From the NCBI GenBank assembly GCA_050084515.1, contig CM114271.1, positions 9,672,001 to 9,736,000 on the forward strand: a stretch of DNA of 64,000 nucleotides, read 5' to 3'. The notes beneath the pieces were generated by a model, which saw only the letters and a program-made list of their open reading frames with translations, was not told where the DNA came from and did not search any database. This DNA comes from Blasia pusilla (lineage: Eukaryota). The first letter of the stretch is position 1. Each line of letters starts with the position of its first letter. This document shows positions 9,418-49,722 of this stretch, in pieces. The position numbers and the translations under genes were made by a program.

Positions 9418-9424
9418 AAAGTTT

Positions 9425-19627: not shown

Positions 19628-20749
19628 TTGGGTTAGACCGAGAATGATTTCCTAGATAGAGGAATAAGAATGAGAATGTTGAATTTATAGTCAACAATGT
19701 CTGTTTAAATTATGATAGAATATGTCTGACATGTAGTTGGTAGTTAGGTTGAACCATCGTCAGGTGACTGGACCTACCAAAAAGGAATATTTTGACATCT
19801 TGGTTCATGACTAGTGGGAAAGGATTTTCCAGGCTTCCTTCAACCTGTGGGAGCCGGACGCGTTGGAAGGTAGACCCAAGGGGAACTCCAACCCGTCGAA
19901 GTCCGACAGATTGGAAACCCTCGAGAGGGATGTCGAAGGAACAAACCCTAAGCCCTAAATGCAATTCGACGAGTTGAATTGAGTTTGGATTCTCTCTGGT
20001 CATATTCCATGGGAAAGATCTGCCAAGGGTCCTTCAACATGTTGGAGTCTGACAGATTGCAAAATGAACCGACTCCGACCGGTTGCACGGGGTCCATCCT
20101 ACCCAATTCTTGCAACCCGTCAAACCTTGACGCGTTGCACGGGGTCCATCCACCCTAGGTCCCGTGCAACCCGTCAGACTCCGACGGGTTGAAGGAACTG
20201 GGCAAGATGAATGGTGCATGTGCAACCCGTCGGACTCTGACGGGTTCCACGAGACCTAGGCTGGATGGACTCCGTGCAACCCGTCAGGGTTTGACGGGTT
20301 GCAGGAATTGGGCAGGATGGACCCCGTGCAACCCGTCGGAGTGCGACGGGTTGCAGGTAGAGTCCCGGGTGTACCGCCCAAGCGGTGGAGTTGCAACCCG
20401 TCGCGCTCCGATGGGTTGCAGGCAGCCCAAGTTGAACATGGACCATAATGGTCCACCGTTGCACCAACGGTCGAGTCTAACGGCACTGAAAGTATATAAT
20501 GACCAGTCTCGAGCCTTTTCACTTTTCCATTCTACAGTTTTTCCGCGGTGCTTTCAACTCCCCTATTCACACAACTATGAAAATTGGCTTACCAATTACT
20601 CGGAAATTTCAATGGTTGGTCGTTGTCTCATCATTTGTAGGCTACAAAAGTCGGTGGCGATGGTTCAAATTGAATCGATTATTTTCAGAGATAACGATGA
20701 TTCAAGTCAAAATCCCTTGTGCAACGTTTGATTGTCAACTTATTTCATG

Positions 20750-23700: not shown

Positions 23701-25690
23701 GGTTGCTCACCAACCGTGGATGTGCAACCCATCAAGTTCCAATGGGTTGCACATGCCGTGGCAAGGTCCATTTGCAACCCGTCAAAATCCGACGGGTTGC
23801 TCGACACAACCCAAAACGTGACGAGTGGGCGATGCAACCCGTTGGACTCCGACGTGTTGTACAAAGCCTGCTAGGGTCAATCTACAACCCGTCGGAGTCC
23901 GGCGGCTTGCAGGACCCACTCCCTTTCTGGGGTGTGTTGAGCAACCCGTCGGAGTCCGATGGGTTGCAGGAAAAAATGAAATCCACGATGCAGGAAAAAA
24001 AGAAAACACTTGCATAAGTTTTTCAAACTTACCAATACTTGGTTTGTAGCCGACCTTAGCGGGTAGTCGTTCTTCACTACCCAAGACAAGACAGTTTGCC
24101 ACTTCAACGATCGCTTCACGCAATGCAAGTTGAAGACCTCATCCTCGCTACCTCCGGTGAGAACAAGGAAACATCACGTGTCACTCAGATACGCATTGGC
24201 AAAGGAGAACATCAAAGCAATTTGGTCATATGTGAAGTGAATGTTCCAATCCAGGACTGTGTCGCGTGGGTTCTCTACCCACAATATAAGCCTCAACATC
24301 CCCTTTGAAGTACTCCTCTGTCTTGAAAATGTTTGGGATGTCCTCCTTGCCAATAGCTAGCGCATTATATAAGTCTCGCATTGTTAGACCAGTTAGCTCA
24401 TCGTGGTCGTTGAGGTCCAGCCAGATTGGAGAGTTCAACACTTCCCAAGGGCTCATGTCAAGCGCCATCTCCACGTCGTACATGGAGAATCCTTCGCCAT
24501 CCGGAGTATCTGCCCATAGTTTCAGCGCCACCGGAAACTTCCTCCATCTTCGTGCGTTCACATAGGAGGTCAAAAATTTGAACACCATCCTATGCACGGC
24601 TTGATGGCAAGATGAATCGATAGCTTGATCTTGAATCTCCTTGTTCTTTTTTTGCGAAGTACCATTTCTTCGGGTCGCCAATCTCCTTGACGACATCCCC
24701 AAGTGGCAGAATCTCGCTCTTGAACATCGTCTTGAACGCGGGGTTCTTCGCTGGCTTATCCCGGATGTTGTTCAACCATAATTCGTACTCCTCTTCCAAA
24801 TCAAGGCTAGCCTCCTCTCAAATTGGCTGAATTCTGTGTAGGTCGGCTTGAAGGCACTCAATCATCGACTTTCCTGGCCAACACATTCATTTCCCAAGAT
24901 GCAGTTGTTATGATTCTTTGCTGGTCGATCGAAAAATCGAGGTGGAAAAAAGAAGTGCGACACTGGAGCTACAGAGACGAGGGAATATTTTGGCTTCTGA
25001 GAAAGCAAAGTTCATTCAGGCTGCGGTATCGGCGGCCACCGGCTACCTTGCCAACAAGATGCAATGGTACATGGCCTTCCTCAACCCCGAGCTTAGGCCT
25101 CAAGTTTACAAGGAGTTGAAGGCCATAATCAAGCGGCAACAAAAGACGGACGAGGATCCCCATGGACGGATTATAGAGAAGGTGTCTTTGGATAGAGTTC
25201 ACCGCTTCGCCTTCTCGTGGATTTCAGAATTCAGGTAGATCCGGCTGATGAAGATCAATCTAGAGGGAAGGAGGCAGAGAAAAAATTGCCACACCATCCC
25301 CCTGGGATGTCGGACCCAGTTATTTCCCATTGGCTACAAGAATGGTCCTTTTGGGATGCCTTGCGCTTGCTGGTGCCTCAAATTTCAAGCATTTTGGAGT
25401 TGACTTATGTTGGTTCTTGGGGAAGGAGCAAATATTGATATCCATGGATTTTTGTTTGCAGAAGCTTCAAAATCAGCTCTTGGGGCAGGTGTTGGGACTC
25501 TTCATGGGTCACATGGGACCGATACAGGGTTCCTAGGGGGACAAGGATCTTGGATCCTCCTTCCTTCTCAATTCCAATCTACAATCATGCAGAGGAGCCT
25601 CTGACTAGCCCTGAGAAGTTTCTTGTAGAGGAATCGGCAAGAGTTAGGAACATTTTTGTAGATGACGAGGCTGAAGAGATCATCGACTAG
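20750..25690 (+). pseudogene. Gene A, copy 3, with an inverted and relocated segment at ~23047-24875
   Basis: Coiled coil 20732..21160; ParB-like 21415..21816; methyltransferase exon on the minus strand (23168..23563, EKSPTLMQTLMEQCSRPGDLVLNLVGLSG). Confidence 0.75.
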
Positions 25691-29393: not shown

Positions 29394-31508
29394 ATGGAAT
29401 TGGATGGTATAGTAGGTGTCATTCAACAATTACCTGTAGGCCCTTATGGGAGGACAATGCAAGTGTCCTCTCAGTCTTCTGTAGCCACCGTATCTACTAT
29501 AGTCGAGACTATAGCAGGTTCAGCTCCTCTGTCTGAGAGCCATACTGAAATTGAGGCACATCCGGTGGGTTCAATTGATATCTCAAACCAAGGTTCTGTT
29601 CGAGTCTCGTTTGAGTCAGTGTAGATGGCAGATCCAAGTGCAAAATGTTGGAATGATGAGTTCATCAGATTAGGGAAGTGGGTTGAGAAGAATGGATACA
29701 AGGACCACAATTGGAGGGTGAGGACATGGGATGATGGAATAGATGTCAGAGGACACCTAGAGTGTTTGGAGTGTAGAGTGAACTATGGGAATGCAGAGAA
29801 TTCCCAAAATGTGAAAGCTATTGCAAATTGCTTTAGCAATTTTAGGACAAAGCATCTAGTTAACCCGAAACACAAGGATAGCTTCTATAAGAGAAGAAAA
29901 TTGCCTACATCATTGATGGAGCCTAGTGATGTTGTTCACAAATCTCATTTTGATCATGGTGAGGCCATCTCTAGAGGACTAGAGATTGTCTCCCAACTGA
30001 ATGAGAATGTTGGGGGTGATAGGGAGGTGTTCTTTGTGACACCATCTCCCACACATCCTCAATATGCCAATATGTCATACCTATTTAAGGTCAGGAGTAG
30101 GGTCTGTGGAAAGTTGCATACAGACATGTTCCCAAAGAAATTGAATTTGGATCATAATTTGAGACAATACATGGTTATCCGGGATCACTTGGATGCCTCA
30201 AAGGTCAAGGAGGCTTCTATGGAGATTGCATTGAGGTGTGGGAAGAGAGGAGGACCAAGGAAAGCAGATACTAGGGATCAACACCCATCACGCGGATCAA
30301 TCTTGAGGTTCTTTACATGAGATAAGTCCAACGTTGGGAGTTCTTCATGGAAAGGTGGGTCACATCGAGCAATAGATCAAGGACTAAGTTTGCTTTGTTG
30401 GGGATTGTGGGATGAAATGGTAAAGTGGAGAGGAGATCGGATGGATGTCAAGGCTATTCTTGATGATCAAGAGGGAGGGGCCTTGTCGGATTGTGAGTTA
30501 ACATGTGAACCTAACATGTAGTAAATGTGAGTCAGTAAAGCGATTGGATGATTTCCGTGGTCGGGTGCACATGGAAGCAGAAGTTGTAGTGCCAAGAGGA
30601 GCAAGAGATACCAGTGGGGGGATACGGTTGGATTGTCTCACCAAGACAGAGCACAGAAAGCACGTTGCAAATTTAACTTCCAAGTTCAGAAAGCAACGAT
30701 GGCTTCTATCATAGTATGTTGCCAAAGTAGTTGCCTTGAGTACTAGGCGGAGGAAGCTAGAGGAATTGTTAGGAGTAGCTACAGATAGGAAGGATCTGGG
30801 ACTATTCCTTAGGAATATAGTGAATAGGCATAGGACTCGAGCATTTGGTGGCAAAGAAGGGTTATGGGATTTCATGACAGATGTTGCTAGAAATCTAACC
30901 AGGGCTGCCAAGGGTTTTAGGGACGGTAAGAGAACCAAAGCCATAGCCCAAGCAATGCTACAATTTGGTGGTAGGCAAATGGACCAGTGCTTTCACAAGA
31001 ACTTAGGTGTTCCAAGTCTAAAAACAGTGCAGCGAGATAGAGCCAAGTTACCACCCTTCACAACTCGATTACGCAAAGCAATATTCGTGGAGGTTGGCAG
31101 AATTTTGTCTGCATCAAAGCAAACTCTTGGAATTGAAGGAGATGTCCCTCTAATATTTGCAGAGGATGAAACAAGGATTAAGGGTGTTTGAGATTCAATA
31201 CAAAAAATTATAAGCCTGTTTTTCCTTTTGAATACAACCTAACATTAAAGAGTTATGTTTGACAAATGGGAGGCCAAGTATGATACCCTAATTAGGTTCT
31301 GTGGGCCCAAAGAGGCACACTAATGTTGATATTGAATGGAAGTACTGGTCGAGGATGGTGATGAGGGCTACCACAAGATTGTAAGTACTTTCTAGGGTTA
31401 TTATAAAGGCACGTTTGCAAAAGTTGTCATTGTAAATCCTCTTCATGAATCTATGCCTAAATTGGTCATCTGTGTTACTGCCACGCGTAACAAGTTCACT
31501 ACAGAGTG
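29394..31508 (+). pseudogene. N-terminal half of a P-element-like DDE transposase with C2H2-like zinc fingers
   Basis: LECLECRVNYG..KHLVNPKH; GVPSLKTVQR; PLIFAEDETRIK..WEAKYDTLIRFCG resembles the first catalytic Asp region. Confidence 0.55.
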
Positions 31509-31509
31509 G

Positions 31510-34500
31510 ATGAGACCTGATTTGAGTCCCACCGCCTTCCTCGGCAGTATACCTTGTACGCTCTGCAATGTGACACCCATCCAGTATCAACATGTGCTCT
31601 GTCCTTGGTAATACCATTATGGCAATCGCACAGGTAGTAGGAATCCAACACGTCTGAGAGAAGAAAAGAAGCCTACCCCTGCCTTTACGACTTGAGGGGA
31701 AGGCGCCAAGGGAAGAAGCCCGCCATACCTCTTAAGTTGGACCAACAGGGAAAGAGTCCGATCAAGCAACCTAAACCCTAAACCCTAAACCCTAAACCCC
31801 TGAAAGTCCCACTAAGTCGAACACCAAGTCACCCGGCCTTGAGCAGAGCTCGATGAGCGTTTGCATCAGGGCTGGCAACTTTTCCCTTCCTCCCAAAAGT
31901 GTGGTACTATCTTGCATGTAAATTCCCGGGGGGGAATTGTACAAACTATCTAAGCTGTACCCATCTGAGCATGGATCCACAGGATCCTAGATCTTGAATA
32001 CCTGGAAATTGTGCTCGGGCCGAACGAAGCAATAAACATAGGAGTGGTCCATCTGTAAAGAAGCATGTTGGAAAAAATGTCAGCAACTTGGCATAATGTG
32101 CAACACGTCACCAAAGAACTCGGCTTGACCCTAGATAACTTTTTTCAATTACTAACTTTGGATCAACCTGTCGGAGTCTGACGGGTTGTTTTGTCCCTGA
32201 CCAACCCGTCGGAAGGCGACGGGTTGCTGGCCTAGAGCAGCCCATGCTTGGCTGAGAGCAACCCATCACTTTTCGACAGGTTGCAACTTTACGGAAACAC
32301 AGGGAAAAACCAAAAGCAACTGCAACCCGTCGAGTTTCGACAGGTTGCAGGTACACCACGGTTTTCCCTGTGTTTCTGGGAAAGATGCAACCCGTTGCCT
32401 TTCGACGGGTTGCTCACGGACAAAAACAACGGAGATATACTATCAGGAATTCACACGCATTGAGCCTTACCCGAATTTGAAAATATATTTGAGATTTTAC
32501 TACAGGAATTGAGCCTTACCCGAATCTGACTCGTCACGGATCGGAGTGGGTACTCGTTTTTTATGAACCACGATTGCGCCGTCCTCCACTTTAGCGACCT
32601 CTTGACGCACTGGAGGTTGAAGAGCTCGTCCTCGCTCCCTCCAGTCAACACTAAGAAGCAGACCTTGTCACCCAGATAAGCGTCTGCAAAGGAGAACAAT
32701 AGCGCGATTTGGTCATAAGAGAGCGGCAAATTCCTGCCAGGTACCCCGTCCGACGGATTCTCGCCCCACAGTCGCAACCTTGAGGGCAGATCAGCAATCA
32801 AGAGATCCACCGCAACCTCTTCAACCACTCCATTCAGTGCCCGTTTCGTTGGAGCTTCCGTCCCAACGTTGTCAATTTATCAATGGCTGGTGTCGACGCT
32901 TGAGAACTGAAGCTTTTCAGCTCATCTAGTAAAGGAGTGAACTGAAGGAGGACGCTTGTCTGGGTCGTTGTTTCTCTATGTCTTCCCAAGGATGATGGAC
33001 TGTATTCTCCTTGGGACAACCCTGGCACCTCTCGCTTCCGCTTCTCTCGAGTCTACGAGCGGCTTGTCGGGGTCTCTATGACCTCAGACTCTGGTGGGGT
33101 TTTTTTCGCCGGGGACCTGGTCCGACCCTCTCACCCCGCTCGCCCGGACGATTCTGCCTCTGGCCTTGAATCTTCATCCTCTCTTTGGGAAGACTCGGCC
33201 TCGGAATTCTTCCCTCCCCTCGCCTTGCCTTTTAGACCCGTTGTGGATTTGTCTTTGGCTGTGCGGACCTTGGAAGCCAAGTCAGGTGTCTCGTGGGCTT
33301 GCTCTTCCGCATCTCCTCTAAAGAAGTCTTCAGGCTGCACAAAATTGGGGATTTCGTCTTGTCCTGAGGCCACTGCATCATGAAGCACTCGTAAATCCTT
33401 ATCGGTGATGTCTTTAGGGTCGTTGAAGTCAAGCCAAATGGGGCAATTCTCCACCTCCCAATCGGACATGTGCTGCGCCATCTCCATGTCGTACATGGAG
33501 AATGTCTCTCCATCAGACAGCGAAGCCCACAATTTCAAGGCTGCAGGTAATTTTCCCCAGGTACCTGCATTCTTACAGTGGACGAGGTACCTGAAGACCA
33601 TCCGTTGGGCATCTTTTACTTGAACTGAATCGGCCGTCTACTCCTGTAGATCTCGCTTCTTCTTTGCTTGATCCTGTTTGTTCCCCACGATTTCTTCGTC
33701 AAGCTCTGCTTGAGGGAGGACGCAAACCTTGAACATTGTCTTGAATCCTGGGTTTTTTATTGGCTTGTCCCGAATGTCGTCAAGCCAAATCTCAAGATCT
33801 ACAGAACTTTCCAGGTTTGCTTCATCCGGAATGGGCTCTAATCTTTTGAGCTCCGCTTGCAGACTGTCCAGCACGGACTTCCCGATAACCCGCAACGCGT
33901 CCCAGAACGACCATTCGCGTAGCCACTGGGAGATCACTGGATCGGACACACTCGGAGGATGGTGTGCCACCCTCTTCTGGGTCTCTGTGCCCTCGAGACT
34001 GATTTTCATCAGTCGGATCCTCCTAAACTTGCTTATGCCGGACAACGTAAACCGATGCACGCGATCCAGGGACACTTTCTCCCCAATCCAACCTTGCGGA
34101 TCTTCATCCCTTTTCCGCTGGCGCTTGATAATCGCCTTCAGCTCCTTGTAAAACTCCGGACCAAGTTTGGGGTTGAGAATGATGATGTATCGCTGCATCT
34201 TGCTCGCCGTGTATTTTGTGGCTGCAGATACTGCAGCTTGGATGAATTTCGCGCGCTCACACCCAGATACTTTCTCCCTCCGCTCCAGCTCCAGTGCAGC
34301 GCTCTTCTTCGCGGCTTGTATTTTTGACCAGCAAAGGATGGTTAGGGCTGCATCTTGGGAAATAAACTTATTTGCCCAAGTTTTCATTTTTATCTGTGCA
34401 CCCTTTGCAAGCATCTGATTTACTAGGGCGTCGCCCAAGAACCCCTTGTACTCTGTCGGGTGCATTATAAGCACCTTCTTCACCCGATCGCAATCATGGA

Positions 34501-36362
34501 TCCAGTGGTGGGTGACATTCTCCTCCGATATAATCCTGCATATCCAAACTCAACCCGTCGGAGTCCGACGGGTTATCACAGCTCAAGGTCGGATTCTAGC
34601 AACGATCTAAATGATGCAACCCGTCGGAGTCCGACGGATTGCATTCACATTTGTGAATGCCTGGTTTCAACTCGTCGGACTCCGACGGGTTGTCAGATAG
34701 TCCGTATCAAACGTGAACATAACAACCCTTCAGAGTCTGACAGGTTGCGCAATTGAATGGAAACTTGCAATTTGACGCGAAATTTGCTAAACCAACTTCC
34801 GAATGCAACCGGTCGGACTCCGACGGGTTGCTTTGGGCCAAAAACATACTAAACCTGTAGTCAGTCGAACAACTCGTTGGAGTCCGACGAGTTGCTTTCT
34901 TCAAAAAACATCTTGAAAAGGCGGCGAGTCGAGCAACCGGTCGGACTTCGACGGGTTGCTTTGGGCCAAAAACTTACTAAACCTGTGGTCAGTCGAACAA
35001 CTCGTCGGAGTCCGACGAGTTGCTTTCGGCATAAAATTACCTAACCCATTCATCAATCGAGCAACTCGTCGGAGTCCGACGAGTCGCGTTTGGCCAAAAG
35101 CATCCCAACAACAGTGCCGATCCAAACAACTTGTCGGAGTCTGACGGTTTGCAGCAAGAAGATACTTACGTGTTCATGGCATGCATTGCCATCTCCACCG
35201 TCGCCATGTGATGAGGGAATGGATGAAGGACCACTGCCTTCACGCAAAAATGTGCCTCCAAGGAGTTGGGCCGCTCCTCTGCAAACTTGGTCCACGCCAT
35301 GAACCTATGATTTCCATCCCAGATGAAGAAATACAGAATCCTCATCCAGCTGAATTCCGTGCCCTCTACTTGCCTTCTGAAATCCTGGTCTTTCATCCTC
35401 CAGAATGTGTCGAGCTTATCCAAGTCCTCCTCCGTAACCAGGGCTTGGGTTCCATGCTCGTTGTAAGGCTGAACATAGAAGGGAGGAAAGTTGTCGACGT
35501 AGGATGCTATCGCCGCCGATTGTTAAAGCTTCGCGATGTCCTCGTCAGACTGAATTTCACGAACGTATTCCATTGTCCGCAATCGGCAGAGTGGAATCCT
35601 CGGGGCGTTGTGGCCCTCCATGAGTGCCATCTGCTTTACCACCTGTCAGAACCGGGACAAGATCAATAAGCTACACTGAATTCCCAATGAATTGCAATTC
35701 ACATAATTCAAAAAACCCAGATCCTCTCTTACCCGCTCGAAAATTGGGTCGATTTCTTGACCAGCCAACTTGTTTGAGACAGCAGCTGGAAAATCGACAG
35801 GGAACTCGTCGATCCGATAGAGGTCGATGTTTTCCTCCGGGCTTGGAGACGATAATGACCGCTCTCCGTCTTCTTCAGCAATGTCCACCATCTCCACGCT
35901 GGCGGTCCTCATGACCTCATCGTCCGTGATTTGAACTTATGGCGTTTTCGCTATGTTGATTGTGTCCCCGGACTTCATCGGGGACATTTCCCGCATCTCA
36001 GCACTTTCAGTTGGACGGGCAGGGCTGTCGTCAATAGCTATCGCTTTTTCCCTCCTCGCTTTAGCCAATTCTGCTCTCCTCACCGACGGGTCCAGATGCT
36101 TCTTTTCTTTCTCTTCGTCGGCGATCCTTTTCTTCAAGGCCTACGACGTCTCAGCCTCTGCGTTCTGTCTATCAAGCGACTCTTGAACACGTCTTGCAAG
36201 AAGCTCCTGGTTGTGCATCTCCGCTTCCCTTTCCTGCTCCTCGATTTCCTGCTGCCTAATTTCATTTGCCGAACGAGGCCCTGGAGATGCTGACGGAGGA
36301 GTCCTAATGGACTTCGGAGTGAAGCTCCTAGACTTGTTTGCTTGAGCTTTTTTCCTCGTCAT
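31510..36362 (-). pseudogene. Gene A, copy 4 (coiled coil, ParB/Srx-like, beta-class methyltransferase-like; 4 exons)
   Basis: ORFs 36141..36383, 35646..35912, 35166..35423, 33638..34483, 33131..33601, 32451..32828 and 31792..31980. Confidence 0.8.
31769..31799 (+). repeat. Interstitial plant telomere repeat (CCCTAAA) x~4
   Basis: cctaaaccctaaaccctaaaccctaaaccc read directly. Confidence 0.9.
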
Positions 36363-36719
36363 TTTTCCCGGAAATGCCTCCACCTATGTCCACGATGAAT
36401 CGCTTGATCAGTCGCCTTGCTGATGTCGAGATGAGTCGCCTTGATGGGTAGCTCGAATCGTCTCGCGATCATTCAGTCGAACTGTCTCACTCTCGTTCCC
36501 TCGTATCGACTCGCGATGACTCGCGGTTTGAAACGCCCCTTGGTATCTGATCAGCTGCTGCGCGGGAGAGAGAGGGATGGAGATCGCGAAATGAGAAACT
36601 GGAAATGAGCAATTTTTCCCTATTTATACTTTTCTAGCCGTTGGGCTGACCGTTGGGTCCCGTCGTCCTTTCGACGGCGACGTGCCGGCCGTTACGGAAG
36701 TCGGGACCTGAAAAATGGC

Positions 36720-37470
36720 AACCCGTCGGAGTCCAACAGGTTGCGCGCCTCCGCCGTCCTTGGAAGATAACGTGAGGTGCACGAGCAACCGTCGGAGATC
36801 GACCGGTTGAGCGCCTTTGCCGTCTTCGGACAAGAACGCGAGGTACCCGCAACCCGTCAGAGACCAACAGGTTGCGCGCCTCCGCTGTCTTCGGACAAGA
36901 ATGGGGCGTACCCGCGCAACCCGTCGGAGACCGACATGTTGCGCGCCTCCGCCGTCTTCTGACAAGAACAGGACGTACCCGCGCAATCCGTCGATGACCG
37001 TTGGGTTGCACGCTTCCCTCGGCAAAGGTTAACAACACGGGCTTCCCGCGCAACTCGTCGGAGTTCGACAGGTTGCACGCTTCCTTCACGTAAGCGAAAC
37101 AAGGCGAGGCCCTTGCGCAACTCGTTGGAGGGCGACGGGTTGCACGCCTTGCCGTCTTTGGGCAAATAGGTGCGACACACGCGGAACTCATCGGGAACAG
37201 ACGGTTTGCACGCTTCCTTCATGTAAGTGTTACACCGTGAGATAATTGGGCAACCCGGCTGATGCCGACGGGTTGCAAGCCTCCGGCATCTTTGGGCAAG
37301 AAGGAGCGGTATCCGAGCAACTCGTCGGAGAGCGACGGGTTTCCAACTTCGACCATGTTTGCGTTTGAAGGTAAGGCAAAAGCGTGCAAACCGTCCGAAG
37401 CTGACGAGTTGCAGGCTTCGCTTAGCTTGGGTTAATTGTTGAGTTACCAGGACTTCGACGGGTTCCAACA
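36720..37470. repeat. Intergenic palindrome array, copy 4
   Basis: ~57-61 bp period, homologous to 3095-4090. Confidence 0.9.
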
Positions 37471-37692
37471 AAATGAAGTGTGCTTCGCAACCCATGTCTC
37501 TGCTTCCCAAATCTGGTAACACTTTGCAACACAATTGAATATGTTGCAAAAGAATTGGGTCCATTGTGTCAGACAATGTCACCTACCGAACTTCATCTTG
37601 TCAGTAAAAATCTGTCAGGAGTATCTGTTTTCCTGTTCACTATAAATTAAAAATTCTCATTCTCACCCTCCTCCCGTACGAAATTTCTGGGA

Positions 37693-40600
37693 ATGGATAA
37701 TTATGTGAAGCTCACTTGTGGCAGTCATCTGGCGGCCCTTCCTCAATCAGAAATCATTCGACTGCAAGCTCGTGAGTCTTTCATAGCACTGGATGAAAAT
37801 TTTCTCTCTGTTCGATTTCTTCTCCAAATTGGAACCATCTTTGTATCCAAAGATATTAGGGTGGACGGTACGGAAGACATAATAGGTGAGACAGTCCAGC
37901 AAGTGACTGCAAACCATAAAGTATAGAATCTCCTACCTCTAGCAAATGGTCAATACAAAGTTTACGGCCTACCCGTGAATTTGTCTGTTTCCCAAGTAGA
38001 CGGTGGAGAATTTCCTAGTGCTCCGAGCTCTACGTGTGCAACTCCTAGCTCAGTACATCCGGCTTTGACTCCAACTTCATACGCTCGTATCAATGTAGTT
38101 CTTCCTGAAGAGATTCTGTATGTTATCAACCTCAATGGATCTGTCGAACACCAACCGGGCCCTCTATCCGCCTACTCGTTCCTCTTGCGAGTATCAAGCA
38201 ATAGTTTGCTTTCGTCTCAGGCCTTGAAAATGTTCAAACACATTCTTGTCGACAAGCTGCCCCCCACGTACGATGGTAATTGCATTTTTGAGTTGCCTCC
38301 ACTTGCTGCTCCTGCTCAAAAGAAAGATGGAGGACGCCTGAAGGGTATGGACAGAAAGTCGATTGTCATCGATGGTGCAGGCTTCAACGGACTAGTGCTT
38401 CAATTCCAGATGGTCCTTGGATTGTCTCCCGCCGCCAATGCGTGGGAGCCTTGGAGTATAGAAGTCCAGCATGCCCGTATCTAGAGTGCAACGGGCGAGT
38501 CAATACGTCGCAATTCCCCCCCAAGAATGCAAAAACTCCATACGAGGTCGGTGCCACCATACTGTCGGGAGGCCATCGATGTCCTCATTGTCACGCATTG
38601 CCCTTTTGCATTGGAGCGTGTCCTGCATACATATTTTTCATTGTCCACGACTTGGGCTCCACGTCAGAGTACACAAGGCTGGCAGTTCATGTTGGCTCCC
38701 ACAATCATCCTGTGAACGATGCAATTCAGAGACACATTAAGGAGGATGTGGCGAAGAAAGTTGCCGAGGTCTACAGAAACTCTCCGGGTTCAAAGCCCGG
38801 AGTGATCAAGCTCACAATGGCATCATAAATTTGTGAACAATTGCGTGGAATCCCTGGACAAGGCGAGATCACGGCGGCTAAGGAGAAACAACTCTGGGAA
38901 AATCTCGCATTTCTCGCTAATCCTGAATGCTTCCGGAATTTGCTGCGTCAAATACGAGTTCTGGATGGAAAGACGGCCAAAATGGATGCCATTGCCAGAA
39001 TCAAGGCCAACTACAGATTTCCATTCATTCAGAGATGGCAGTTCATGGGCCAAGGAGGCGAGGGATCCAGGGCCTATGTCTTCAAAATGTCAACCACAGT
39101 CCGTCTGAGTGGCCTCGATCTTATAGATCGAATGAGGGAAGGGAAAGATCTTTACGGCGGTGGGTAAGCTTTGATATTTGCTCTGAGTCTTTGAATGGAT
39201 GGTTGACGATGGGTGCTCACGTTTATGACCATGTGGAGAAGGGACTCAAAACTATATTTGTCTGTGAAGTAAAGGCAGAAGACGTTGGCAGTTTGAAGAT
39301 GTGCTGGTTACTCTTATTGGAGGTGGTGAAGGAAAACAAAAGGCCACCTCCGGAAATTTATGGGTTCATGGCAGATAATGCACAACCTGGGTGGATTGCT
39401 ATTTGGGAAGTGTTATGGGGTGGAGAGGTTCAACCGGAGAGGGAAAGGTCAGATGCTTTATATTGGCAACAGTCTGTGACCCGGTACACCAAATCTTGCA
39501 TCAAGGAGAATAAGAGGACAGAGCATGTCACTCTACTCCAACGCTGCAAGGACAACAAAACCTTGAAGCACGCCATGGAATACCAGGAAGAACTTCATGG
39601 GTAGTGGAGGAAGCATGCGATTGAGGGGGAGTACAAAGAGTTGTGCTCTTGGTTGAGTTGGTGGACTGTACGTATGAGACAATGGGGAAACTTCATGCGG
39701 CAGGTGAGTTCACTATTTTGTCTTGTCAAGCTCACGCTGAGAATTGTTTGTAAAGTTGCAGCTCAGGTTGAGAAGCGTGGGAACTATAGGGATTTCAAAC
39801 CAAAGAAACCAAGCAAGCTGTTGGATGCGACGGGTTTCGCGAGTGTGCAACCCGACGGAAACCGACGGGTTGCATCAAGAATTTTGGTGCAACCCAAGTG
39901 TGCAACCCGACGGAAACCGACGGGTCGTAGAGTCGTTCATGGGATGCCTCGGCCTTGCAACCCGTCTCAATCCGACAGGTTGCAATAGGTGGGTTTAGGA
40001 TTGCAACACGTCGGGACCAGACGGGTCGCAGAGTCGTTCATGGGATGCCTCGGCCTTGCAACCCGTCTGGTTCCGACGGGTTGCAGTAGGCGGGTTTAAG
40101 GTTACAACACGTTGGGACCCGACGGTCGCAGAGTCGTTCATGGGATGCCTCGGGCTTGCAACCCGTCTGGTTCTGACAGGTAGCTTATGTCTTTGATTGC
40201 TGAGTTATTTTTGTTCCCTTCTAACATTGCCGTCGTTGCAGGGATTGAACGTTCATGAAAATGCCCTCTGCCCCAACACAAGTGGAGCAGAAAGTGTTCA
40301 TTCCTCCTGGAGGTTGTCACAAGCATGCCAACAAATTTCACTTGTGGAGGCATGCCAACAAGACCAGGCAAGAGCAATGCTCTGATCTGCAAAGACATCC
40401 CATATCTTCCTCACAAAAGGCATAACAAAAGGAAGGGGGTCGTCGATCTACGAGCTCTATGTCAGGGCGGCTGTGAGATCTGGTGATGAAAAAATGTATG
40501 TGGAAGCCTTCAATCGGTGCGAAGTAGGAACTCCCCTCAAGCAAGACGTACACATTGGTGGGGATATTCGTGGGCGGGTTTCAAGACGTCCTATACAGAT

Positions 40601-41747
40601 GGTGGTAGAGCATTCCGAGCGAGACTCGTGGAGACCAGATAAGTATCTTGACTTCAGGCCGGTGAAGAGGCAGCATCGAGGAACGAATCCAGTGATTGAT
40701 TTGGATGAGGAAATTACGCCGCCCAAGTATTCGGGGACCCCGGACCGCTCCCTAATCCGTGATGGAGTTACTTCTCCAAAATCAGTGAATGTTTTATTTC
40801 AAAAGCCCTCTGTTGCTGGAAGTTCGCAACATCATATCATTGGAGTGGTTCAACAATATGGGATTCCGGTAATGGAGGTGGATTGCAACCTAAAACGGTG
40901 GCATATATCTCGGAGCAACCCAGGACGTGGACCCACCAGCAGGGTAGGATCTGATGGCATTAGGAGAGCATGCGGCACTTTCATAAATAAAAACTGTACA
41001 AGGACAGGACGACCACTGCTTGGGTTTTGGGGACTCAAAACCTTTGATCGTTTCACGAGGACTGAGGATCAATTGAAGTACTTCTTCTGCACAAATGAAT
41101 CTTGCACTTTCCAGAAGTCTTATCCGGCTGCCATTGGAGCTCCGGGCAATACCCCCACGATTTGGCCCAACGCCGTAGGTACGAACTGTACTCAAGACGA
41201 AGTGGACAATCTTACAAGTGCCGGTTTCAGACTCATAGACGGGGGAAGTTTGGATCATGTTCGCATTACATAGACCTTTGCATTTTGTATTCAACCCAAG
41301 ATTGATGTCAACATGTACCCGGAGAAGGTGGATGATCTCAATCCACTATTTCTGTTTGAGTCTAGAAATGGGGTGAAGAGAAACAAAATGTGTAGGCCAA
41401 CGGTGGAGAGAGCAAAGCGAATTGCATAAGCTCGGGAGGCAAAAATAGAGATCATCGCCACGAAAGATGTCCACAGTGGCAATGGAATAGGAAGGATGTA
41501 TTGGGTCAGGAACAACACTGTAAATTTAAGTGTCACAAGGGTGTATGTGGTGCACATCTATTGCTTTCCCATATGTTCATGTGATGACTTTGTCCAAAGA
41601 GAGACAAGTGGAAAAAAATATTTCCCTTGTAAGCACATGTACTATGTATTGCAGGTAGTTGTAAGTGAGTCGGAGGTAGGAGTAGGAATCCACCAACCAA
41701 TTCTGTCCCTCAAAGAAGTGCGAAGTATTTTAAACAAACCACTTTGA
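37693..41747 (+). pseudogene. Gene B: Mutator/MULE-like transposase (GCM-like Cys/His domain, DDE core, SWIM finger); 2 exons, intron 39704-40241
   Basis: WVSFDIC (D1), GFMADNAQPGW (D2), RSDA(F/L)(H/Y)W (C/DxxH position), PNTSGAESVHSSW (E), CSCDDF..FPCKHM (SWIM); GT..CTAAC..AG intron; several stops and frameshifts. Confidence 0.8.
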
Positions 41748-42519
41748 GGATGCAAAATGAGGTTTTAGATTGTACTTTCATTTTTCAAGAACCTTCACTT
41801 TTAGCTTGAACTCTATTCAGCCTAGGGCAAATGGTAGATTGTTTCCGGATCTTGGATGGAAAAAGTGATTGGTTCCACACTTATGATTCCACTGATTTTT
41901 CAGTTTTGTATATTTTGTGCAATTTGCAACCAGTCGGACTCAGATGGGTTGCCAAAATATGGAAGAGAAAAAAGATTTGTGGGAGTGTTTAATAACTGAA
42001 CAAAAAAGTGCAAAAAAATTCACACAAAAAGTTTCCTCTCTTCAACCCAACTGAAACTCTCTTCAAAAAAAAGTATCTATTTCGGTTGAAGGTAGTTTCC
42101 TCTCTCCTCTCTCCTTTCTTCCTTTCTTCCTCTCCTCTTACCGCACCTCCAACCCATCAGGGTTGAACTATTTGCAGGCCTTGCATACATGCAACTTGCA
42201 ACCCGTCGGAATTCGACAGGTTGCACACTCATGCAACCAGTCGGGTTCCAACGGGTTGCACAAACATTCCTCGTGCATGATGTCACGCTCCAATGGGTAA
42301 TACAAACATTCTTGATGCAACCCGTCGGTTTTCGACTGGTTGCACATTCAGGCAACCTGTCGTATCTAACGGATTGCTTGGTTTCTTCCGTTTGAAATCC
42401 CTATAGTGCCCACGCTTCTTAACTTGGGCTGTAACTTTTCAAACAATTCTCAGCATGAGCTCGATAGGACGAAATAATGAACTCACCTGCCATATGAAGT
42501 TTCCCCATTGTCTCATTTG

Positions 42520-42829: not shown

Positions 42830-45569
42830 CTACCTCGGGTTCCTCGGACTGCCACGCCTGGGTGCATACGCCCGCTCCACGCGGTGATGCACGCAAGATC
42901 GCGCTAATCGTTGAAGCTCCTCAGTCGAGCCCCACAACGGCACCTCTCCTCCACGGAATGATGCAGCTACCATAACACTCCTCTCCATAGAAATGTCAGG
43001 AACAGGAGTATCCTCTGCATGGACATGTCCCTCAATCAAATCACTAGGCCAAGTGATGGCACTGCTAAATGCTGCTAAGGTCGCCATCTCTCCTGGCCGT
43101 TGCTCGATCACTGCACTTGTGAATCGAACGGGTATTGAGCTAAGGCACCCATCACCTGACTTCCATCCTCGTCTGTAGGACGCTGACTCCTCCCAGTAAT
43201 CCAGGGAAAACCCCATCGGGTATAACACTGCTCCACCAACCAAGACGTCGTAGGACTCAGCATCAGTCACTATCGCCTTGGCGCGCACCACGGACTCATC
43301 TGTAGGATGTCCCGGGCGAATCCTCACCACGACCTCCTCTCGGGTGATATATTGTGTGGTACTTGCTCCACCCAAGGATGTCTGTATCCGAAATGGACAA
43401 CACTCCACATCGGCTCTCGTCAAGCCCAATCCTCTGAATGACGCTTTCCCCAACATCAAGGGTTGCGCTCCTGAATCCAACAAGACGCGTTGCGGACTAA
43501 AAGCTCTACCTCCAAGACTCACCAACTGGAAGACCTCTCCTTGGTTATCCAGAAACACAACACCAGGAGAAGCCATGGCACGCTCTATCGCGGGTCTAGC
43601 GGGCATCTCCGCCATCCTAGCGACATGACCATGACTGCCATGAATCGGCGTGGGCGGCCCGAGCATCCGCTCCAAGGGCAGGTCCATCACCTCCTCTACA
43701 ATCACCTCGAACGTGATGCAGAACTTCAACTCGCTCACATAGTGAAGCGGCCAAAAAAAGCCTCGGCGGGCGTACCTCCCAACGTCACAACATCGGAAGC
43801 AGAAAATAAAGGAGTGCGGTACACAATGGTGGCCGCCCCCAACAACGTGCTCGACACATGCCCCTCATGAGCATCAACAATAGGAGTCGTCGCACTTGCT
43901 TCTCCCATCGCCCTTCGTGCTTGCACACCAACAACATTACCAACTCTCCAGGAACTTTGATGAGGACCCATCGATGAGGTCCTCATCGCTTCGCACAACG
44001 TGAAAGATTGAGGAAGCCTAGTCGTCATCGGCTTCCCCCCCCGTGGATCCAACTCTACGGCGCTCCACGCGTCGTCAAGCTGGGCGGCCTCCATCTGGGC
44101 AACCCCGCACATCCATCCAGGATCCTCTAGATCTCTGGCTGCTCCATATGATGTCGATGCCACGGATCCGGCATCGGGTAACCTCAATGCCATAGCGGCA
44201 ATCTGCTCTTGTAGCTGTTGTATCGAGCGACCATCCGGCCTCACGTCCGGCATCTCCCTCGGCGCGTCTAGGTGGTGGTACTCTACCTCCTCCACAGGCA
44301 ACTCCACCACCCTGTCGGGCAACTCCAACTCCTTGTCCCCCAACGGGACCACCTGGAGCATGATCTCTGGGCCCACCCGGACTGGCTACTCGCTCTGGTG
44401 CCCTCTTTGGCCCTCGGTCCAGACGTAACTCAGGATGTAAACGAAAACACCTGGCGCGTGTATGACCATACCTCTGACAATAGTCACACTGATAACCTCC
44501 TGGTGCAGCACCATCTCCTCCTCCATGTTGAGGCACACGTCCATGACCCTGACGAGTGCAATGCAATACCGATGATGGGCTCCACCACATGACCAATAAG
44601 TAATAGTAGGCGGCTGCTGCTGAGCCGCATATGAAGGCGCAGGTCTCTGTGGCACGGCCTCTCGGTATCCTCCCTGAGCTTGTGGTGCCACAGTCGACCT
44701 ATCTCGGAGTCCACGTTGCTACATAGGTGGTGCAGACAATCGTGACTGCTCTCGCCCAGAACCCATGGTGGCCACGCTCTCCTCCGCCATGTTGCGCTCA
44801 ATGTTCTCAGCGGTCCTAAAAACATCTCTCAACGTAGGGAAGGTGTTCATAAGAAGCACCCCTCCCGCACCCGTGTCCGCAAGGTCCGGTCCAGCATCGC
44901 ATACCATGACTGGATAGCCTGAACCTCTGTCACCCCCCGAGTGGCGTTGATCAACCGGGCGCAGCGAGTGTAAGCCTCACGCAAACTCTCACCCGGCGCC
45001 TCGAAGTCGTGGATGCTCCGCAACTTCTCCGTCACGCACCCCCGATAGCTTGCCCTCAACTCAAGCAAAGAACTCAACCACGAGGGGTTGAACCGGGACG
45101 AACCCGACTAGACGATGCAATCGCTGCTCCCGTGTGAGTGACCCTCCTAAAACGTCACTAGTGGAAGAGGCGAGCCTCTCCCGACTCCTCCTCCTCATCA
45201 TCGGGAACGGCTCCGCCCATGACACATAATGTGGGTCATAGTAGAGCCTACACGCCTCGATCTCACATGCATATCTCGAGAGAACTCATGGTAATCGTCC
45301 ATGGGCGCCCCCTCTAAATCTTTGGAACATACCGTTCCATGTCAGAACGGGTTAAACTCTCTAGAGTTCCCGGCCCGCTGGGAGTCGCACCAACTCCTAA
45401 ACTCTACTATAAAATCGTGCAACTCAATCGTGCCTACTGCACCTGAAAACCTACGCGGTCCTCTACCCTGGTCGTCCATCTCGTACGCCCAACTGGTAGG
45501 ACCACTCACAATGTGTGGCGATGTGCTCACAAACTCCTCTACACCCTCCCCCTCGTCTGACGATGACAC
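42830..45569 (-). pseudogene. gag-pol: gag-protease portion of the retroelement polyprotein
   Basis: RFSG..ELHDFIVEFRSWCD; ESLREAYTRC; knuckle CDYCQRYGHTRARC; protease VLLDSGAQPLMLG and YDVLVGG. Confidence 0.8.
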
Positions 45570-46130: not shown

Positions 46131-48439
46131 GGTACTTACCTAAAATAGTAAGTTCCTCAATATGGCTCCAAATGAGCCGAAACGAAGGGGAAACCTGCTA
46201 TCTCAGGTTTCAAAGGGCCACAGCAGGTCACCCTTGACCTACTGGGCGTGTCCTCCACTACTCATGAAGGCGCTCTATTAGATCCCACTAATCTATCCTA
46301 AAAGACGTGACACATTCGTACAGTCCACCAAATGAGCCAAGAGCACAACTCTTTGTACTTCCCCTCAATCGCATGCTTCCTCCACCACCCGTGTAGTTCT
46401 TCTTGGCACTCCATGGCCTGTTTCAAGGTTTTGCTATCCTTGGAGCGTTGGAGTAGAGTGACATGCTCTGTCCTCTTATTCTCCTTGATGCAAGATTTGG
46501 TGTACGGGGTCACAGACTGTTGCCAATGGAAAGCATTCGACCCGTCCCTCTCTGATTGAACCTCTCCATCCCAGAACACTTCCCTGATAGCAATCCACCC
46601 AGGTTGTGCATTGTCCGCCATGAATCCATAAATTTCCGGAGGTGGCCCTTTTTTTTTCCTTCACCACCTCCAATAGGAGTAACCAACACATCTTCAAAGT
46701 GCCAACATCTCCTGCTTTTACCTCACAGACAAATATAGTTTTGAGTCCCTTCTCCACATGGTCATAAACATGAGCACCCATGGTTAACCATCCATTCAAA
46801 ATTATGTAGCAAATATCAAAGCTTACCCAGCTGCCGTAAAGATCTTCCCCTTCCCTCATTCGATCTATAAGATCGAGGCCACTCGATGGGCTTGTCGTTG
46901 ATATTTTGAAGACATAAGCTCTCGATCCTTCGCCTACCAGGCCCATGAACTCCCATCTCTGAATAAATGGCAATCTAGAGCTGGCCTTGATTCTGGAAAT
47001 GGCATCCATTTCGGCCGGCTTTCCATCCAATACCCGTATTTGATGTAGCAAATTTTGGAAGCATTAAGGATCAGCGAGAAATGCGAGATTTTCCCAAAGT
47101 AGTTTCTCCTCAGCATCCGTGATCTCGCCCTCCCAAGGATTCCAAGCAATTGTTCTCAAATTTGTGATGTTGTTGTTAACTTGATCACTCGTTGCTTTGA
47201 TCCCGGAGAGTTTCTATGTACCTCGGCCACTTTCTTTGCCACATCCTCCTTGATGTGTCCCTGAATTACACCGGTAATAGGATGAATGTGGGAGCCAACA
47301 TGAACTGCCAGCCTTGTGTACTCGGACGTAGAAGTGAAGTCGTGCACAATAAAAAAAATTTATGCACGACACGCTCCAACGCAGAAAGGGGATGTTTGAC
47401 AATGAGGACATCGATGGCCTCCCGGCGGTATGGTCGCACCGACCTCATATGGAGTTTCTGCATTCTTAGGGGAAAATTGTGATGTATTGACTCGCCCATT
47501 GCGCTCTATATACGGGCATGTTGGACTTCTACACTCCACGGCTCCAACGCATTGGCTGCGAGAACAATCCAAGGACCATCTGGAATTGAAGCACTAGTCC
47601 GTTGAAACTTGCACCATCGATGACAATCACACTTTTTGTCCATACCCTTCAAGCATCCTCCATCTTTCTTTTGAGCAGGACCAACAAGTGGAGGCAACTA
47701 AAAAATGCAATTACCATCGTACGTGGGCGGCAACTCGTCTACAAGAATGTGCTTGAAAATTTTAAAGGGCAGAGATGACAGCAAACTATTTTCTCGATAC
47801 TCGCAAGAGAAACAAGTAGGTAGATAGAGGACCTGGTTGGTGTCCGACTGTTCCACTAAGGTTGACATCCGGTATGTCTTCAGGAAGTACAACATTATTA
47901 CGAACGTGTGAAGTTGGAGTCAATGCCGGATCTACTGAGCTTGGAGTGGAAAACGTAGAGCTAGGAAATTCCGGACCGTCTACTTGGGAAACATAGGAAT
48001 TCAGAGGCAAGCCATAAACTCTGTATTGACCATTTTTTAGAGTTAGGAGATTCCATACTTTATGGTCTGCTTTCACTGGTTGGACTGTCTCATCTACAAC
48101 GTCCTCCGTACCGTCCACCCTAACATCCTTGGAAAGAAAGATTGTTTCAATTTGGAGAAGAAATTGCACTGAAAGGAAATTTTCATCCACTGGTATGTAA
48201 GATTCACGAGCTTGCGGTCGAACTATTTTTCATTGAGGAAGGGCCGCTAGTTGACTGCCACAAGTGAGTTTCACATAATTATCCATTCCCAAATGATTCC
48301 ACTGCATGGAGAATGAGAATAAGAATAAGAATGAGAATGTTTAATTTATAGTGAATAGTGATCGTTATTGTCCTGACAAAATTCGACTGACAAGATGTTG
48401 TTTGGTAGGTGAGATTGTTTGACGGAATGGATTCAATCT

Positions 48440-49325
48440 TGTTGCAACCTGTTGGAGTCCGACGGGTTGCAAATTTTGGGACTCAGACACGTGGGTTGCA
48501 AAGCCACAGAGTACCATCTTCTGTATGAGTCCGAGTGCAACTTGCAACCCGTCAGAGTCCGTTGGGTTGATACCCCCTGCCTGTCTGACCTGTGTGATTG
48601 GAGTCGGGATTTGCTAACATCGAGACATGAGACGTCGCATGGATTTGCTACGGCAACCCGTTGGGGCCTACGACGGGTTCGAAAAGCACCTTACCTCGCT
48701 TTCCCTTTCAGATCTCGCATTGATTTCTCTTGTCCGATGAATTGTGCAAACCAAAAGTGCAGATTTTCCGGATGGTGGGAAGTGTCCTACCTAGGGTAGA
48801 GCTTGTAACCCGTTGGAGGGAAACCGCTTGCCTCGGGACTATGCTTTGTCACATTGTTACCCGAGGACGAGGAACGCGTGCAACGCGTCAGTCTCTGAGG
48901 GGTTGCGCGGGTACCTTGCCTTGTTACTCCAAGATGGGGGAAGTGTGCAACCCGTCGACCTCCGACAAGTTGCACGGGAACCTCACCTTGCTACCCCAAA
49001 ATGGGGGAAGCGTGCAACCCGTCGGTCTCTGACGGGTTGCACGGTACCTTGCATTGTTATCCCAAGACCGAGGAAGTGTGCAACCCGTCACTCTCCAACG
49101 GGTTGCACGGGTACCTCGCATTGTTACCCCAAGACTGGGGAAACGTGCAAGCCATTGGTCTCCGACGGGTTGCTTGGATTCCTCACCTTGTTACCCGAGG
49201 ACAAGGGATCTGTGCAACTCGTCGGTCTCTCACAGGTTGCCTCAGTAACTCGCCGTGCATCCCCAAGACAAGGGAAGCGTGCAACCCATCGGAGACCGAC
49301 GGGTTGCTTGGGTTCCCACTTGCAA
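48440..49325. repeat. Intergenic palindrome array, copy 5
   Basis: ~66-bp period with a linker family (gggtacctcgcattgttaccccaag) different from copies 1 and 4. Confidence 0.9.
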
Positions 49326-49722
49326 AGATCCATAACGGCCTACACGTCACCCTAAATACAACCCAACAATCCAATGGTCAGCTCAACGGCTCGGAAAGTA
49401 TAAAAGGCTGAGGTTTTGATCTTTTCCGTTTTTCATTTCGTGATTTCATGTGCTCTTCCTCGTAGCAGCTGACGTTACCTTTCCGCTGCCAAACTCGATT
49501 ACATCACCACTTTGCTGAAAGGTTACGACGATCCAGCAATTGACGCTTCCAGGTTTGGATTTTGGCAAGCCCATTCTCTGGAGGGTCACGACGCTTCATC
49601 ACAAAATGCTAAGAGAGTTGGGTTTGGGGTCACGGCGCTTCGTCACGAAACGCTTCGAGGGGTCTATCGTGCACACGAGCATATTAGAGAGTCGAGGAGG
49701 AAGAACTGACCCAACGTGCACC

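Follow-up and report, generated by a model that had tools for sequence, protein, structure and literature searches.

Structure of the element and its copies

We analyzed a window of 64,000 nucleotides (nt) from Blasia pusilla (GenBank assembly GCA_050084515.1, contig CM114271.1, positions 9,672,001 to 9,736,000 of the forward strand; all coordinates below are counted from the first letter of this window). It holds a transposon family in which a transposase-like gene and a second gene, here called gene A, are transcribed divergently and in which the non-coding DNA carries arrays of one 27-bp palindrome. Self-comparison of the window placed one copy, copy 4, at 31515-42151 (the copy as a whole, its terminus and its arrays are given without strand), since homology to the other copies stops at 31515 and at approximately 42151. 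These ends agree almost exactly with the bounds of 31510-42150 given in a preliminary description of the locus. The stretch is one decayed copy of a family of approximately 12-kb cut-and-paste DNA transposons with two divergent genes, and it is truncated on the gene A side, where copy 6 continues for approximately 1.2 kb farther to its terminus.

At least six copies or fragments of the family, 67-94% identical to one another, lie within the window. The preliminary description had counted six copies of a single architecture. Pieces of gene A do occur at seven places, but the divergent pair of genes with an array between them is kept in only four copies (approximately 43-6000, 15787-23046, 31515-42151 and 46313-56118), the others being fragments or rearranged. 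Linkage of gene A to the transposase is nevertheless retained in these four diverged copies. Every copy in the window has in-frame stops or frameshifts, and none has both of its ends inside the window. Copies 3 and 4 end on the transposase side in approximately 25-30 nt of CT-rich sequence that recurs, inverted, where copies 2, 5 and 6 end on the gene A side. The outermost bases differ between the two kinds of terminus, and the palindrome is absent from the sequence that they share. In copy 4 a subterminal palindrome (41926-41952) and this CT-rich terminus together occupy 41926-42151. An Rfam search of the whole window returned no matches.

Several ends of the six or more copies and fragments in these 64 kb face each other at distances of 1.4-2.1 kb (14383/15787 and 56118/58239), and such clustering points to local hopping or to preferential insertion close to elements of the same kind. 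From the end of gene A out to the terminus on that side are approximately 1.8 kb (12700-14383, 54280-56118 and 59890-58239) that are 75-90% conserved between copies and contain a fixed pair of palindromes, which in copies 2, 5 and 6 lie approximately 810-830 bp inward of the terminus. No open frame in this stretch was common to all three copies, and no third gene was seen in it.

Gene A lies on the minus strand, from 36383 to 31795, and reads as one spliced gene. Its predicted product has a domain with the motif DGNHR, then a helical middle region, then a C-terminal homologue of PF01555-type DNA methylases. Exon 1 (35170-36383, minus strand, as are all parts of the gene) has four in-frame stops and encodes a charged N-terminus and, after it, the ParB/Srx-like domain. 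The domain itself, with WDGNHR, lies at 35645-35170, and residues 153-300 of the relative P0002 matched the exon (tblastn, E = 4.6e-18). Intron 1 (34536-35169; GTAAGT...CAG) is 634 nt long, joins its exons in frame and contains seven palindromes at a spacing of 64-66 bp. Its donor is kept in copies 3 and 5, the predicted junction joins ...MAMHAMNT to IISEENVTHHWIHDC..., and full-length relatives run unbroken over this junction. The middle exon or exons (33134-34535) encode the conserved all-helical region and have a single in-frame stop (33640-33638). The exon for motif IV of the methylase-like domain (32520-33052) encodes LLIADLPS (32876-32520) and then the strand CFLVLTGGS, and is frameshifted relative to copy 6. 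Intron 2 (32053-32519; GTAAGG...CAG) again joins in frame, with ...SQIR predicted to continue into MDHSYVYCF..., and contains four palindromes. The last exon (31795-32052), which encodes motif I (GDLVFDLVGLSG), is shortened by a deletion at 31795; it aligned to the relative P0040 with a tblastn E of 4.8e-6, and its counterpart in copy 6 aligned to the same protein with an E of 3.2e-11.

The DGNHR domain and the middle region are assigned to one protein because the relatives P0001, P0002 and P0008 carry both in one chain. A HMMER search with the 472-residue middle region recovered 37 relatives among 1.84 billion representative proteins (best E 4.1e-21), of which 11 have DGNH[RQ] upstream in the same chain. 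Full HMMER was needed for this, as word-indexed protein searches with the 303-amino-acid middle exon (near lengths) and with the DGNHR exon (longer lengths) returned nothing. P0002 extends into the C-terminal domain, and a search with that part of it returned 15 proteins, all from the liverwort Riccia sorocarpa. Since these are encoded on contigs of six different lengths, relatives of gene A are multi-copy in R. sorocarpa. In tblastn alignments the window protein is 25-36% identical to them.

The transposase-like gene occupies 37651-41747 of the plus strand. Its first part (37651-39604), interrupted by frameshifts and stops, comprises a DDE/RNase H-like core (38927-39604) preceded by a Cys/His-rich stretch (38292-38828); its second part (40386-41747) ends in a SWIM-type CxCx16CxH zinc finger (41430-41747). 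The Pfam SWIM profile (PF04434) matched below its threshold (E = 0.013, 15.5 bits vs. 19.6 bits). A Protein Atlas language-model feature search with 38927-39604 gave a best score of 0.94, to MULE / ZSWIM1-3_RNaseH-like clusters; the ten best named matches fall in one family or clan, with only 151-158 of 256 features shared. The preliminary description had called the element Mutator-like. This assignment is favored by the sub-threshold SWIM and language-model matches, but not by Pfam, whose MULE profile (PF10551) found nothing at E values up to 10 in the transposase pieces tried. Overall, the transposase is probably that of a Mutator-like element (MULE). An EnSpm/Plavaka assignment was considered because red-algal Plavaka elements are described as having once been misfiled as MULEs through their accessory genes (bioRxiv 10.1101/2025.02.11.637652), and was provisionally set aside since the SWIM finger and the Atlas matches favor a MULE.

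Selection on the two genes

We compared the window copies pairwise, segment by segment, by the uncorrected ratio of nonsynonymous to synonymous differences per site (pN/pS). All gene A and transposase segments compared gave values of 0.05-0.55, with the sole exception of 0.72 for the DGNHR exon of the near-identical copies 4 and 6. When that pair is left out, the DGNHR exon gave 0.05-0.23 between subfamilies. The middle region of gene A gave 0.16-0.44, the motif IV exon 0.18-0.45 and the motif I exon 0.10-0.38, and the transposase pieces gave 0.26-0.55 (0.26-0.47 in the first part and 0.34-0.55 in the second). Synonymous differences between copy 3 and the others reach 0.8-0.9 per site. Purifying selection acted on both genes as the subfamilies arose: low pN/pS combined with synonymous divergence of this extent implies that the copies stem from lineages that diverged while both genes worked.

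In the region 15787-25372, copy 3 is uneven in its divergence. Relative to copy 4, its gene A part has a synonymous difference per site (pS) of 0.79-0.90, whereas pS in the adjoining transposase part is only 0.26-0.55; downstream, at 25372-23189, another partial gene A is oriented the other way. This mismatch may reflect either two abutting elements of different subfamilies or an exchange of modules.

Arrays of a 27-bp palindrome

The refined consensus of the palindrome is GCAACCCGTCGGA-N-TCCGACGGGTTGC, 27 bp in length with 13-bp arms. A scan of the window for GCAACCCGTCG-N5-CGACGGGTTGC with up to three mismatches found 88 matches, compared to 0 in each of 100 dinucleotide-preserving shuffles. 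A stricter scan, which allowed two mismatches per arm, gave 90 sites and was the source of the refined consensus and of the base-change counts given below. Mean information was approximately 1.4 bits per arm position, a value partly imposed by the selection of sites, vs. approximately 0.1 bit per position in the 20-nt flanks. Because the flanks are this flat, the palindrome is the only sequence common to the arrays, whose periods are 55, 64 and 67 bp and whose flanks and repeat units differ from one array to another.

Copy 4 contains 25 palindromes by the three-mismatch scan, and none of the 25 lies in an exon. Four are in intron 2, seven in intron 1, eight in the divergent promoter, five inside the transposase gene and one is subterminal. 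The observation in the preliminary description that a single 27-bp palindrome fills the non-coding DNA holds, both in its contrast to shuffled sequence and in the placement of all copy 4 sites outside exons. The promoter array (36718-37438) has a 67-bp period and eight or nine sites, depending on the scan. It occupies the intergenic region between the divergent gene A and transposase, and recurs at the equivalent place in copies 1, 3, 5 and 6. The five sites inside the transposase gene (39847-40084) form an array with a 55-bp period in a non-coding stretch that is probably an intron of that gene.

Array positions recur between copies that differ by up to 0.8-0.9 synonymous changes per site, and array lengths, in number of units, vary. 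At five fixed positions in the non-coding DNA, the subfamilies carry tandem arrays of the same, unchanged 27-bp palindrome. That consensus and positions have both stayed constant over such synonymous divergence is what argues most strongly for a functional site. Departures from the consensus are mostly C-to-T and G-to-A (150 of 231 together), an excess consistent with deamination of methylated cytosines in a silenced repeat of the plant type.

An exact scan for the 27-mer in metagenome and viral contigs gave 0 matches. A relaxed core, AACCCGTCG-N5-CGACGGGTT, occurred at 85 loci in metagenome contigs and at 59 prokaryotic loci (185,579 prokaryotic genomes), and no arrays of it were found: among the listed loci each has a single site, except for one locus with two, which looks like chance.

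Domains of the gene A product

Fold tests were carried out with an AlphaFold model of the relative P0008 (41 aligned rows), which is confident over residues 135-710 and to which the DGNHR exon of the window aligns at an E of approximately 1e-18. In a Foldseek search of the PDB, ranks 1-10 among the matches listed were Noc, sulfiredoxin and ParB, though with E values of 0.4-1.1. With a second structural aligner the top 23 rows all belonged to the ParB/Srx superfamily, led by Noc with a Z of 8.6. Residues 146-307 (approximately) of P0008 matched Caulobacter ParB with a Z of 8.2 and a root-mean-square deviation (rmsd) of 2.5 Å over 99 aligned residues, and Arabidopsis sulfiredoxin was matched over 89 of its 89 residues (Z 5.8, rmsd 3.3 Å). 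A search among 48,161 chains, made independently of Foldseek, gave KorB (Z 7.2, rmsd 2.7 Å, 95 aligned) and PadC (Z 6.4) as its best matches, and placed members of the superfamily at ranks 1, 2, 4 and 5. Because these matches are coherent and span the whole small domain, we accept a ParB/Srx fold for the N-terminal domain of gene A, as modeled in P0008. The preliminary description had anticipated a ParB/Srx-like domain with DGNHR, and the fold comparison with P0008 upholds it. Noc and KorB also align over P0008 residues 150-520 at an rmsd of 6.4-9.4 Å, a hint of helices in the position of the helix-turn-helix.

In the window copies and in the relatives the motif of this domain reads WDGNHR(F/V/L)xxW. 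Searches by sequence profile found little for it: Pfam on ten relatives, at E values up to 0.01, gave nothing for the DGNHR domain, and neither did NCBIfam (ParB or DGQHR-type) nor PHROGs. DUF1015 matched two of three window copies below threshold (E = 0.0075-0.03; 13.6-15.7 bits vs. 25.8 bits). A Foldseek search of viral models gave no match at E values up to 0.001, and many of its best rows were phage ParB-like proteins. A match of the DGNHR exon to SUMO in a search of PDB sequences (E = 1.5) was dismissed as chance.

For the C-terminal domain, the relative P0043 matched PF01555 above threshold (31.7 bits vs. 26.7 bits, E = 1.9e-7), at profile positions 144-218 only, and six other relatives fell below the threshold (13.8-25.7 bits). 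The window protein itself gave no direct Pfam match to PF01555; its exons align to the PF01555-type Riccia relatives with tblastn E values of 3.2e-11 to 5e-4. PHROGs returned phage DNA methyltransferase families, the best being phrog_3008 (E = 4.2e-9), and tblastn with the relative P0041 against phages gave weak methylase matches only (E = 0.2-0.9). A family profile compared to PDB sequences had eight matches at E values up to 10, of which the five best were beta-class methylases (two DpnA, two M.RsrI and CcrM) with E values of 0.07-0.14 that are not significant alone. The CcrM alignment (residues 30-256, E = 0.14) spans motif IV to motif I, with DcLylDlpsg over DLIFADPPYN and, at motif I, GDividfvGgsGat (GDIVIDFxGGxGAT) over GDVILDPFFGVGTT. 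Motif IV also precedes motif I in the window itself, where LLIADLPS stands upstream of the exon with motif I, and this order indicates the beta class. The C-terminus of gene A is thus a homologue of beta-class, PF01555-type DNA amino-methylases. The claim of a beta-class methylase fold made in the preliminary description is supported to that extent, by P0043, by the alignment of the window exons and by the motif order. In most Riccia relatives motif IV reads D-L/M-P-S-G ([LMF] at the second position overall), and the window copies have D-L-P-S, D-F-P-S or D-P-P-L, with codons that fit an ancestral D-L-P-S-G.

Sequences neighboring the family copies

Just beyond the end of copy 4, at 42151-42516, the segment 39674-39896 is duplicated in inverted form (223 nt, 85% complementary), and three further palindromes are present; this is probably a fragment of another copy of the family. 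Farther on, between copies 4 and 5, the minus strand of 42830-44698 is GC-rich (0.52-0.57), has a strongly negative GC skew and contains long open frames that overlap; one of these frames has a weak, sub-threshold C2H2 zinc-finger match (E = 1.9e-4). On the plus strand at 29625-31191, two open frames (231 and 158 amino acids) abut the truncated end of copy 4; neither matched Pfam, and they may belong to another, unclassified element. The minus-strand frame 8016-9059 encodes a gag domain of retrotransposon type (E = 2.2e-10) and weakly matches a caulimovirus coat protein, and near it is an inverted pair of segments of approximately 1.4 kb that are 67% identical (8824-10187 and 14414-15783). This gag-bearing stretch is an unrelated retroelement lying between family copies. 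Finally, four air-metagenome runs of one study contain 8-15% of sampled words of 31795-41750, which has no bearing on habitat.

A possible role for gene A and the palindromes

We tentatively favor, at somewhat less than an even chance, an interpretation in which a dimeric protein made by the element itself, most likely the gene A product, uses the palindromes as its cis sites in self-recognition. The 13-bp arms point to a dimeric reader, and the element encodes two candidates for that reader, the gene A product and the transposase. Gene A is preferred because ParB-family proteins read clustered palindromes and because the arrays lie in the promoter and introns rather than at the very ends of the element. 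Published work also points this way: VANC21 is described as acting likewise on VANDAL21 (PMC5735166), and the same proposal has been made for PAG3, which is encoded beside inverted-repeat arrays (bioRxiv 10.1101/2025.02.11.637652). The gene A product would, as a dimer, coat the element's own non-coding DNA via the palindromes and would then either mark that DNA by means of its methylase domain, on N6 of adenine or N4 of cytosine, or shield it. The outcome could be self-recognition that counters host silencing, in the style of VANC on VANDAL, or control of the element's own expression.

Several observations weigh against this interpretation. All copies in the window are pseudogenes. The Foldseek E values for the ParB fold were all 0.4-1.4, the Z values are middling, and Pfam found no ParBc domain (PF02195) in gene A or its relatives. 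Partition-type ParB proteins have the motif GERRxRA, in place of which gene A has DGNHR, with one Arg common to both, and DGNHR does not suggest a CTP (cytidine triphosphate) clamp. The helices that replace the ParB helix-turn-helix in the P0008 model are acidic, and its helical middle gave only generic helical matches, none to a known DNA-binding fold, in the search of 48,161 chains; with no clear match at hand, we make no claim of a new fold for that region. As for the methylase domain, motif IV is without the first Pro and the aromatic residue of (D/S/N)PP(Y/F/W). Activity is uncertain because DLPSG stands where Pro-Pro-aromatic is expected, and the domain may be inactive. An AlphaFold model of P0043 (22 aligned rows) had a mean pLDDT (predicted local distance difference test) of 42.3, too poor for a fold search. 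The center of the palindrome, GANTC, is the target of CcrM-type enzymes, but only 37 of 90 sites match it exactly, and conservation of the palindrome is lowest there. We have therefore set GANTC aside as the methylase target and keep it as a lead.

The transposase has a Cys/His-rich N-terminal stretch of its own that could read the palindrome, which also counts against gene A. The palindromes would then be transposase sites, used in the assembly of a complex or in the activation of cognate copies, and gene A would act elsewhere. A 2026 preprint is described as reporting that the Mutator transposase AtMu1 activates cognate copies in a sequence-specific manner. Subterminal palindromes are present toward both ends, approximately 200 bp from the transposase-side end and as the pair on the gene A side, and the stretch at 38292-38828 is CxxC...HxH-like. 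However, in Mu, Ac and En/Spm the sites for the transposase are concentrated in the terminal 200-300 bp, whereas most palindromes here are internal, in the promoter and introns. The shared terminal sequence is without the palindrome, and no Pfam match to FAR1, WRKY or DBD_Tnp_Mut was found in the transposase pieces tried. We regard this alternative as rather unlikely, though it is one to be taken seriously. We would call it unlikely, though likewise to be taken seriously, that the gene A product instead binds the arrays as a catalytically dead scaffold or reader, recruiting or excluding host chromatin factors and leaving no new mark on the DNA. Such a role would suit the D-[LMF]-P-S-G version of motif IV in the window family and the Riccia relatives, and there is a precedent for an inactive methylase domain in a transposon protein, that of DIRS1, as described by Iyer et al. 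(2016). Against it, motif I (D-x-x-G-x-G) and the rest of the domain were under purifying selection, with pN/pS of 0.10-0.45, which fits retained cofactor binding and possibly activity. At the other extreme, gene A could be an active non-canonical amino-methylase that is tethered to the palindromes by its ParB-like module and writes N6-methyladenine (for example in the central GANTC) or N4-methylcytosine (4mC) throughout the non-coding DNA of the element. A mark of this prokaryotic type would protect a land-plant transposon from host silencing by 5-methylcytosine; elements of this sort would be a possible source of the 4mC enzyme of liverwort sperm. We consider this a long shot.

Two further explanations would deprive the arrays or gene A of any part in recognition. 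The arrays could have no protein partner at all and be slippage-prone hairpin repeats, or a palindromic insertion that has spread, perhaps feeding host small-RNA silencing. Their tandem form, the variation in unit number between copies and the ability of palindromes to form hairpins all agree with this, and the 150 C-to-T and G-to-A changes among 231 mismatches are consistent with a methylated, silenced element. However, the 27-bp core is kept while flanks and units differ (periods of 55, 64 and 67 bp; approximately 0.1 bit per flank position), its consensus survives in subfamilies with synonymous differences up to 0.9 per site, and the arrays occupy five fixed positions and are never in exons, so that arrays free of any partner seem very unlikely to us. 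Gene A might also be a captured host gene with no role in the life of the element, since MULEs often capture fragments of host genes in the manner of Pack-MULEs. Yet four diverged copies retain gene A, with all three of its domains, together with the transposase; the gene was under purifying selection across subfamilies, and its relatives are multi-copy and dispersed in Riccia. Comparable accessory genes are, moreover, described as accompanying other transposon superfamilies in algae. Capture from the host is accordingly the least credible of the explanations considered here, and highly improbable.

Comparison with known systems

The likeness of gene A to bacterial partition systems lies in the fold of its N-terminal domain and in the clustering of palindromic sites, as for ParB and parS, and its likeness to CcrM, M.RsrI and DpnA lies in the order of motif IV before motif I and in the sequence of motif I. 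Unlike the ParB proteins of bacteria and phages, gene A is without GERRxRA and without a detectable ParBc or helix-turn-helix match, and its DLPSG motif IV sets it apart from beta-class methylases. Predicted spliceosomal introns and a eukaryotic transposon setting further distinguish it from the bacterial and phage systems.

Proteins that join or associate such domains have precedents in eukaryotes. Iyer et al. (2016) are described as deriving some eukaryotic methylases, including a haptophyte clade, from phage ParB-terminase loci, and as noting Dam-type enzymes linked to ParB and helix-turn-helix domains in chlorophytes and chytrids. Marchantia has two N4-cytosine methylases of sperm, MpDN4MT1a and MpDN4MT1b (bioRxiv 10.1101/2021.02.12.428880). 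These resemble gene A as prokaryote-type amino-methylases in a liverwort, and they write DNA marks in that lineage. They differ, by description only, in having a canonical TSPPY and in being a sperm-expressed host gene, and the description that we compared makes no mention of ParB.

The preliminary description did not recognize the element as a described family. This calls for revision, as transposon-encoded ParB-like/DNA-methylase accessory proteins, some with inverted-repeat arrays, have been reported in brown, red and green algae. The Ectocarpus element Sola1-1_Ec32 carries on the opposite strand an accessory gene for a protein of 1104 amino acids with a ParB-like and a DNA methylase domain, and its authors propose that this protein binds and modifies its own element (Genome Biol 2025, PMC12477816). 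Like the present element, Sola1-1_Ec32 is a large DNA transposon with its accessory gene on the strand opposite the transposase. It belongs to the Sola1 superfamily and to a brown alga, whereas the element here is probably a MULE, and its published description, to which our comparison is confined, was seen to mention no cis-motif array in contrast to the palindrome arrays found here.

In the Plavaka elements of the red alga Bostrychia moritziana, PAG2 combines PF01555 with a SET domain, and PAG3 combines an N-terminal ParB-like domain with a 2-oxoglutarate (2OG) oxygenase (bioRxiv 10.1101/2025.02.11.637652). The best HHpred match of PAG3 is described as a ParB structure, tandem inverted-repeat arrays adjoin it, and the authors propose self-binding and say that homologues occur in Mutator elements of Chondrus (same preprint). 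Gene A shares with PAG2 and PAG3 the PF01555 domain, the ParB-like domain, the adjoining repeat arrays and the proposal of self-binding. The differences, again judged from the published description, are that the two domains are on separate proteins there and that the carrier is EnSpm/Plavaka, whereas in the present element one protein combines the ParB-like and PF01555-type domains, and arrays also fill the gene A introns and a probable intron of the transposase gene.

The preliminary description had also drawn a parallel with the motif arrays in the non-coding DNA of VANDAL elements, and this was borne out by the published account, in which VANC21 binds motif arrays in the introns and intergenic DNA of its own element (Nat Commun 2017, PMC5735166). 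VANDAL21 is likewise of Mutator type, encodes an accessory protein and has tandem arrays of a short motif in intronic, intergenic and terminal non-coding DNA. As described, however, VANC is unrelated to ParB or methylases, and its motif is 9 bp, non-palindromic and fast-evolving, in contrast to the conserved 27-bp palindrome here. Loss of methylation has been demonstrated for VANC, whereas the present element is known from sequence alone.

VANDAL and VANC are the only case known in detail of transposon proteins that recognize the element encoding them and chemically mark or shield it, and the algal ParB-like/methylase accessory genes were noted in 2025 with a function that is proposed only. 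To these the present element adds a conserved candidate cis site, 27 bp long and present 25 times per copy, that is suited to direct binding and modification assays. It also adds relatives in a liverwort, a lineage in which 4mC on DNA is already known, and evidence that the accessory gene, odd methylase motif included, was kept by selection. The function of ParB-like/methylase accessory proteins thereby becomes more testable, and no new category is opened. A literature search found no description of the present element in a land plant. The kind of element has been sketched in print for algae, and the one described here broadens it to include a relative of liverwort elements without being the first of a new kind. 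Compared to the published descriptions that we drew on, what is new is that relatives occur in a liverwort, that the carrier is probably a MULE and that a conserved 27-bp palindrome fills the gene A introns and a probable intron of the transposase gene.

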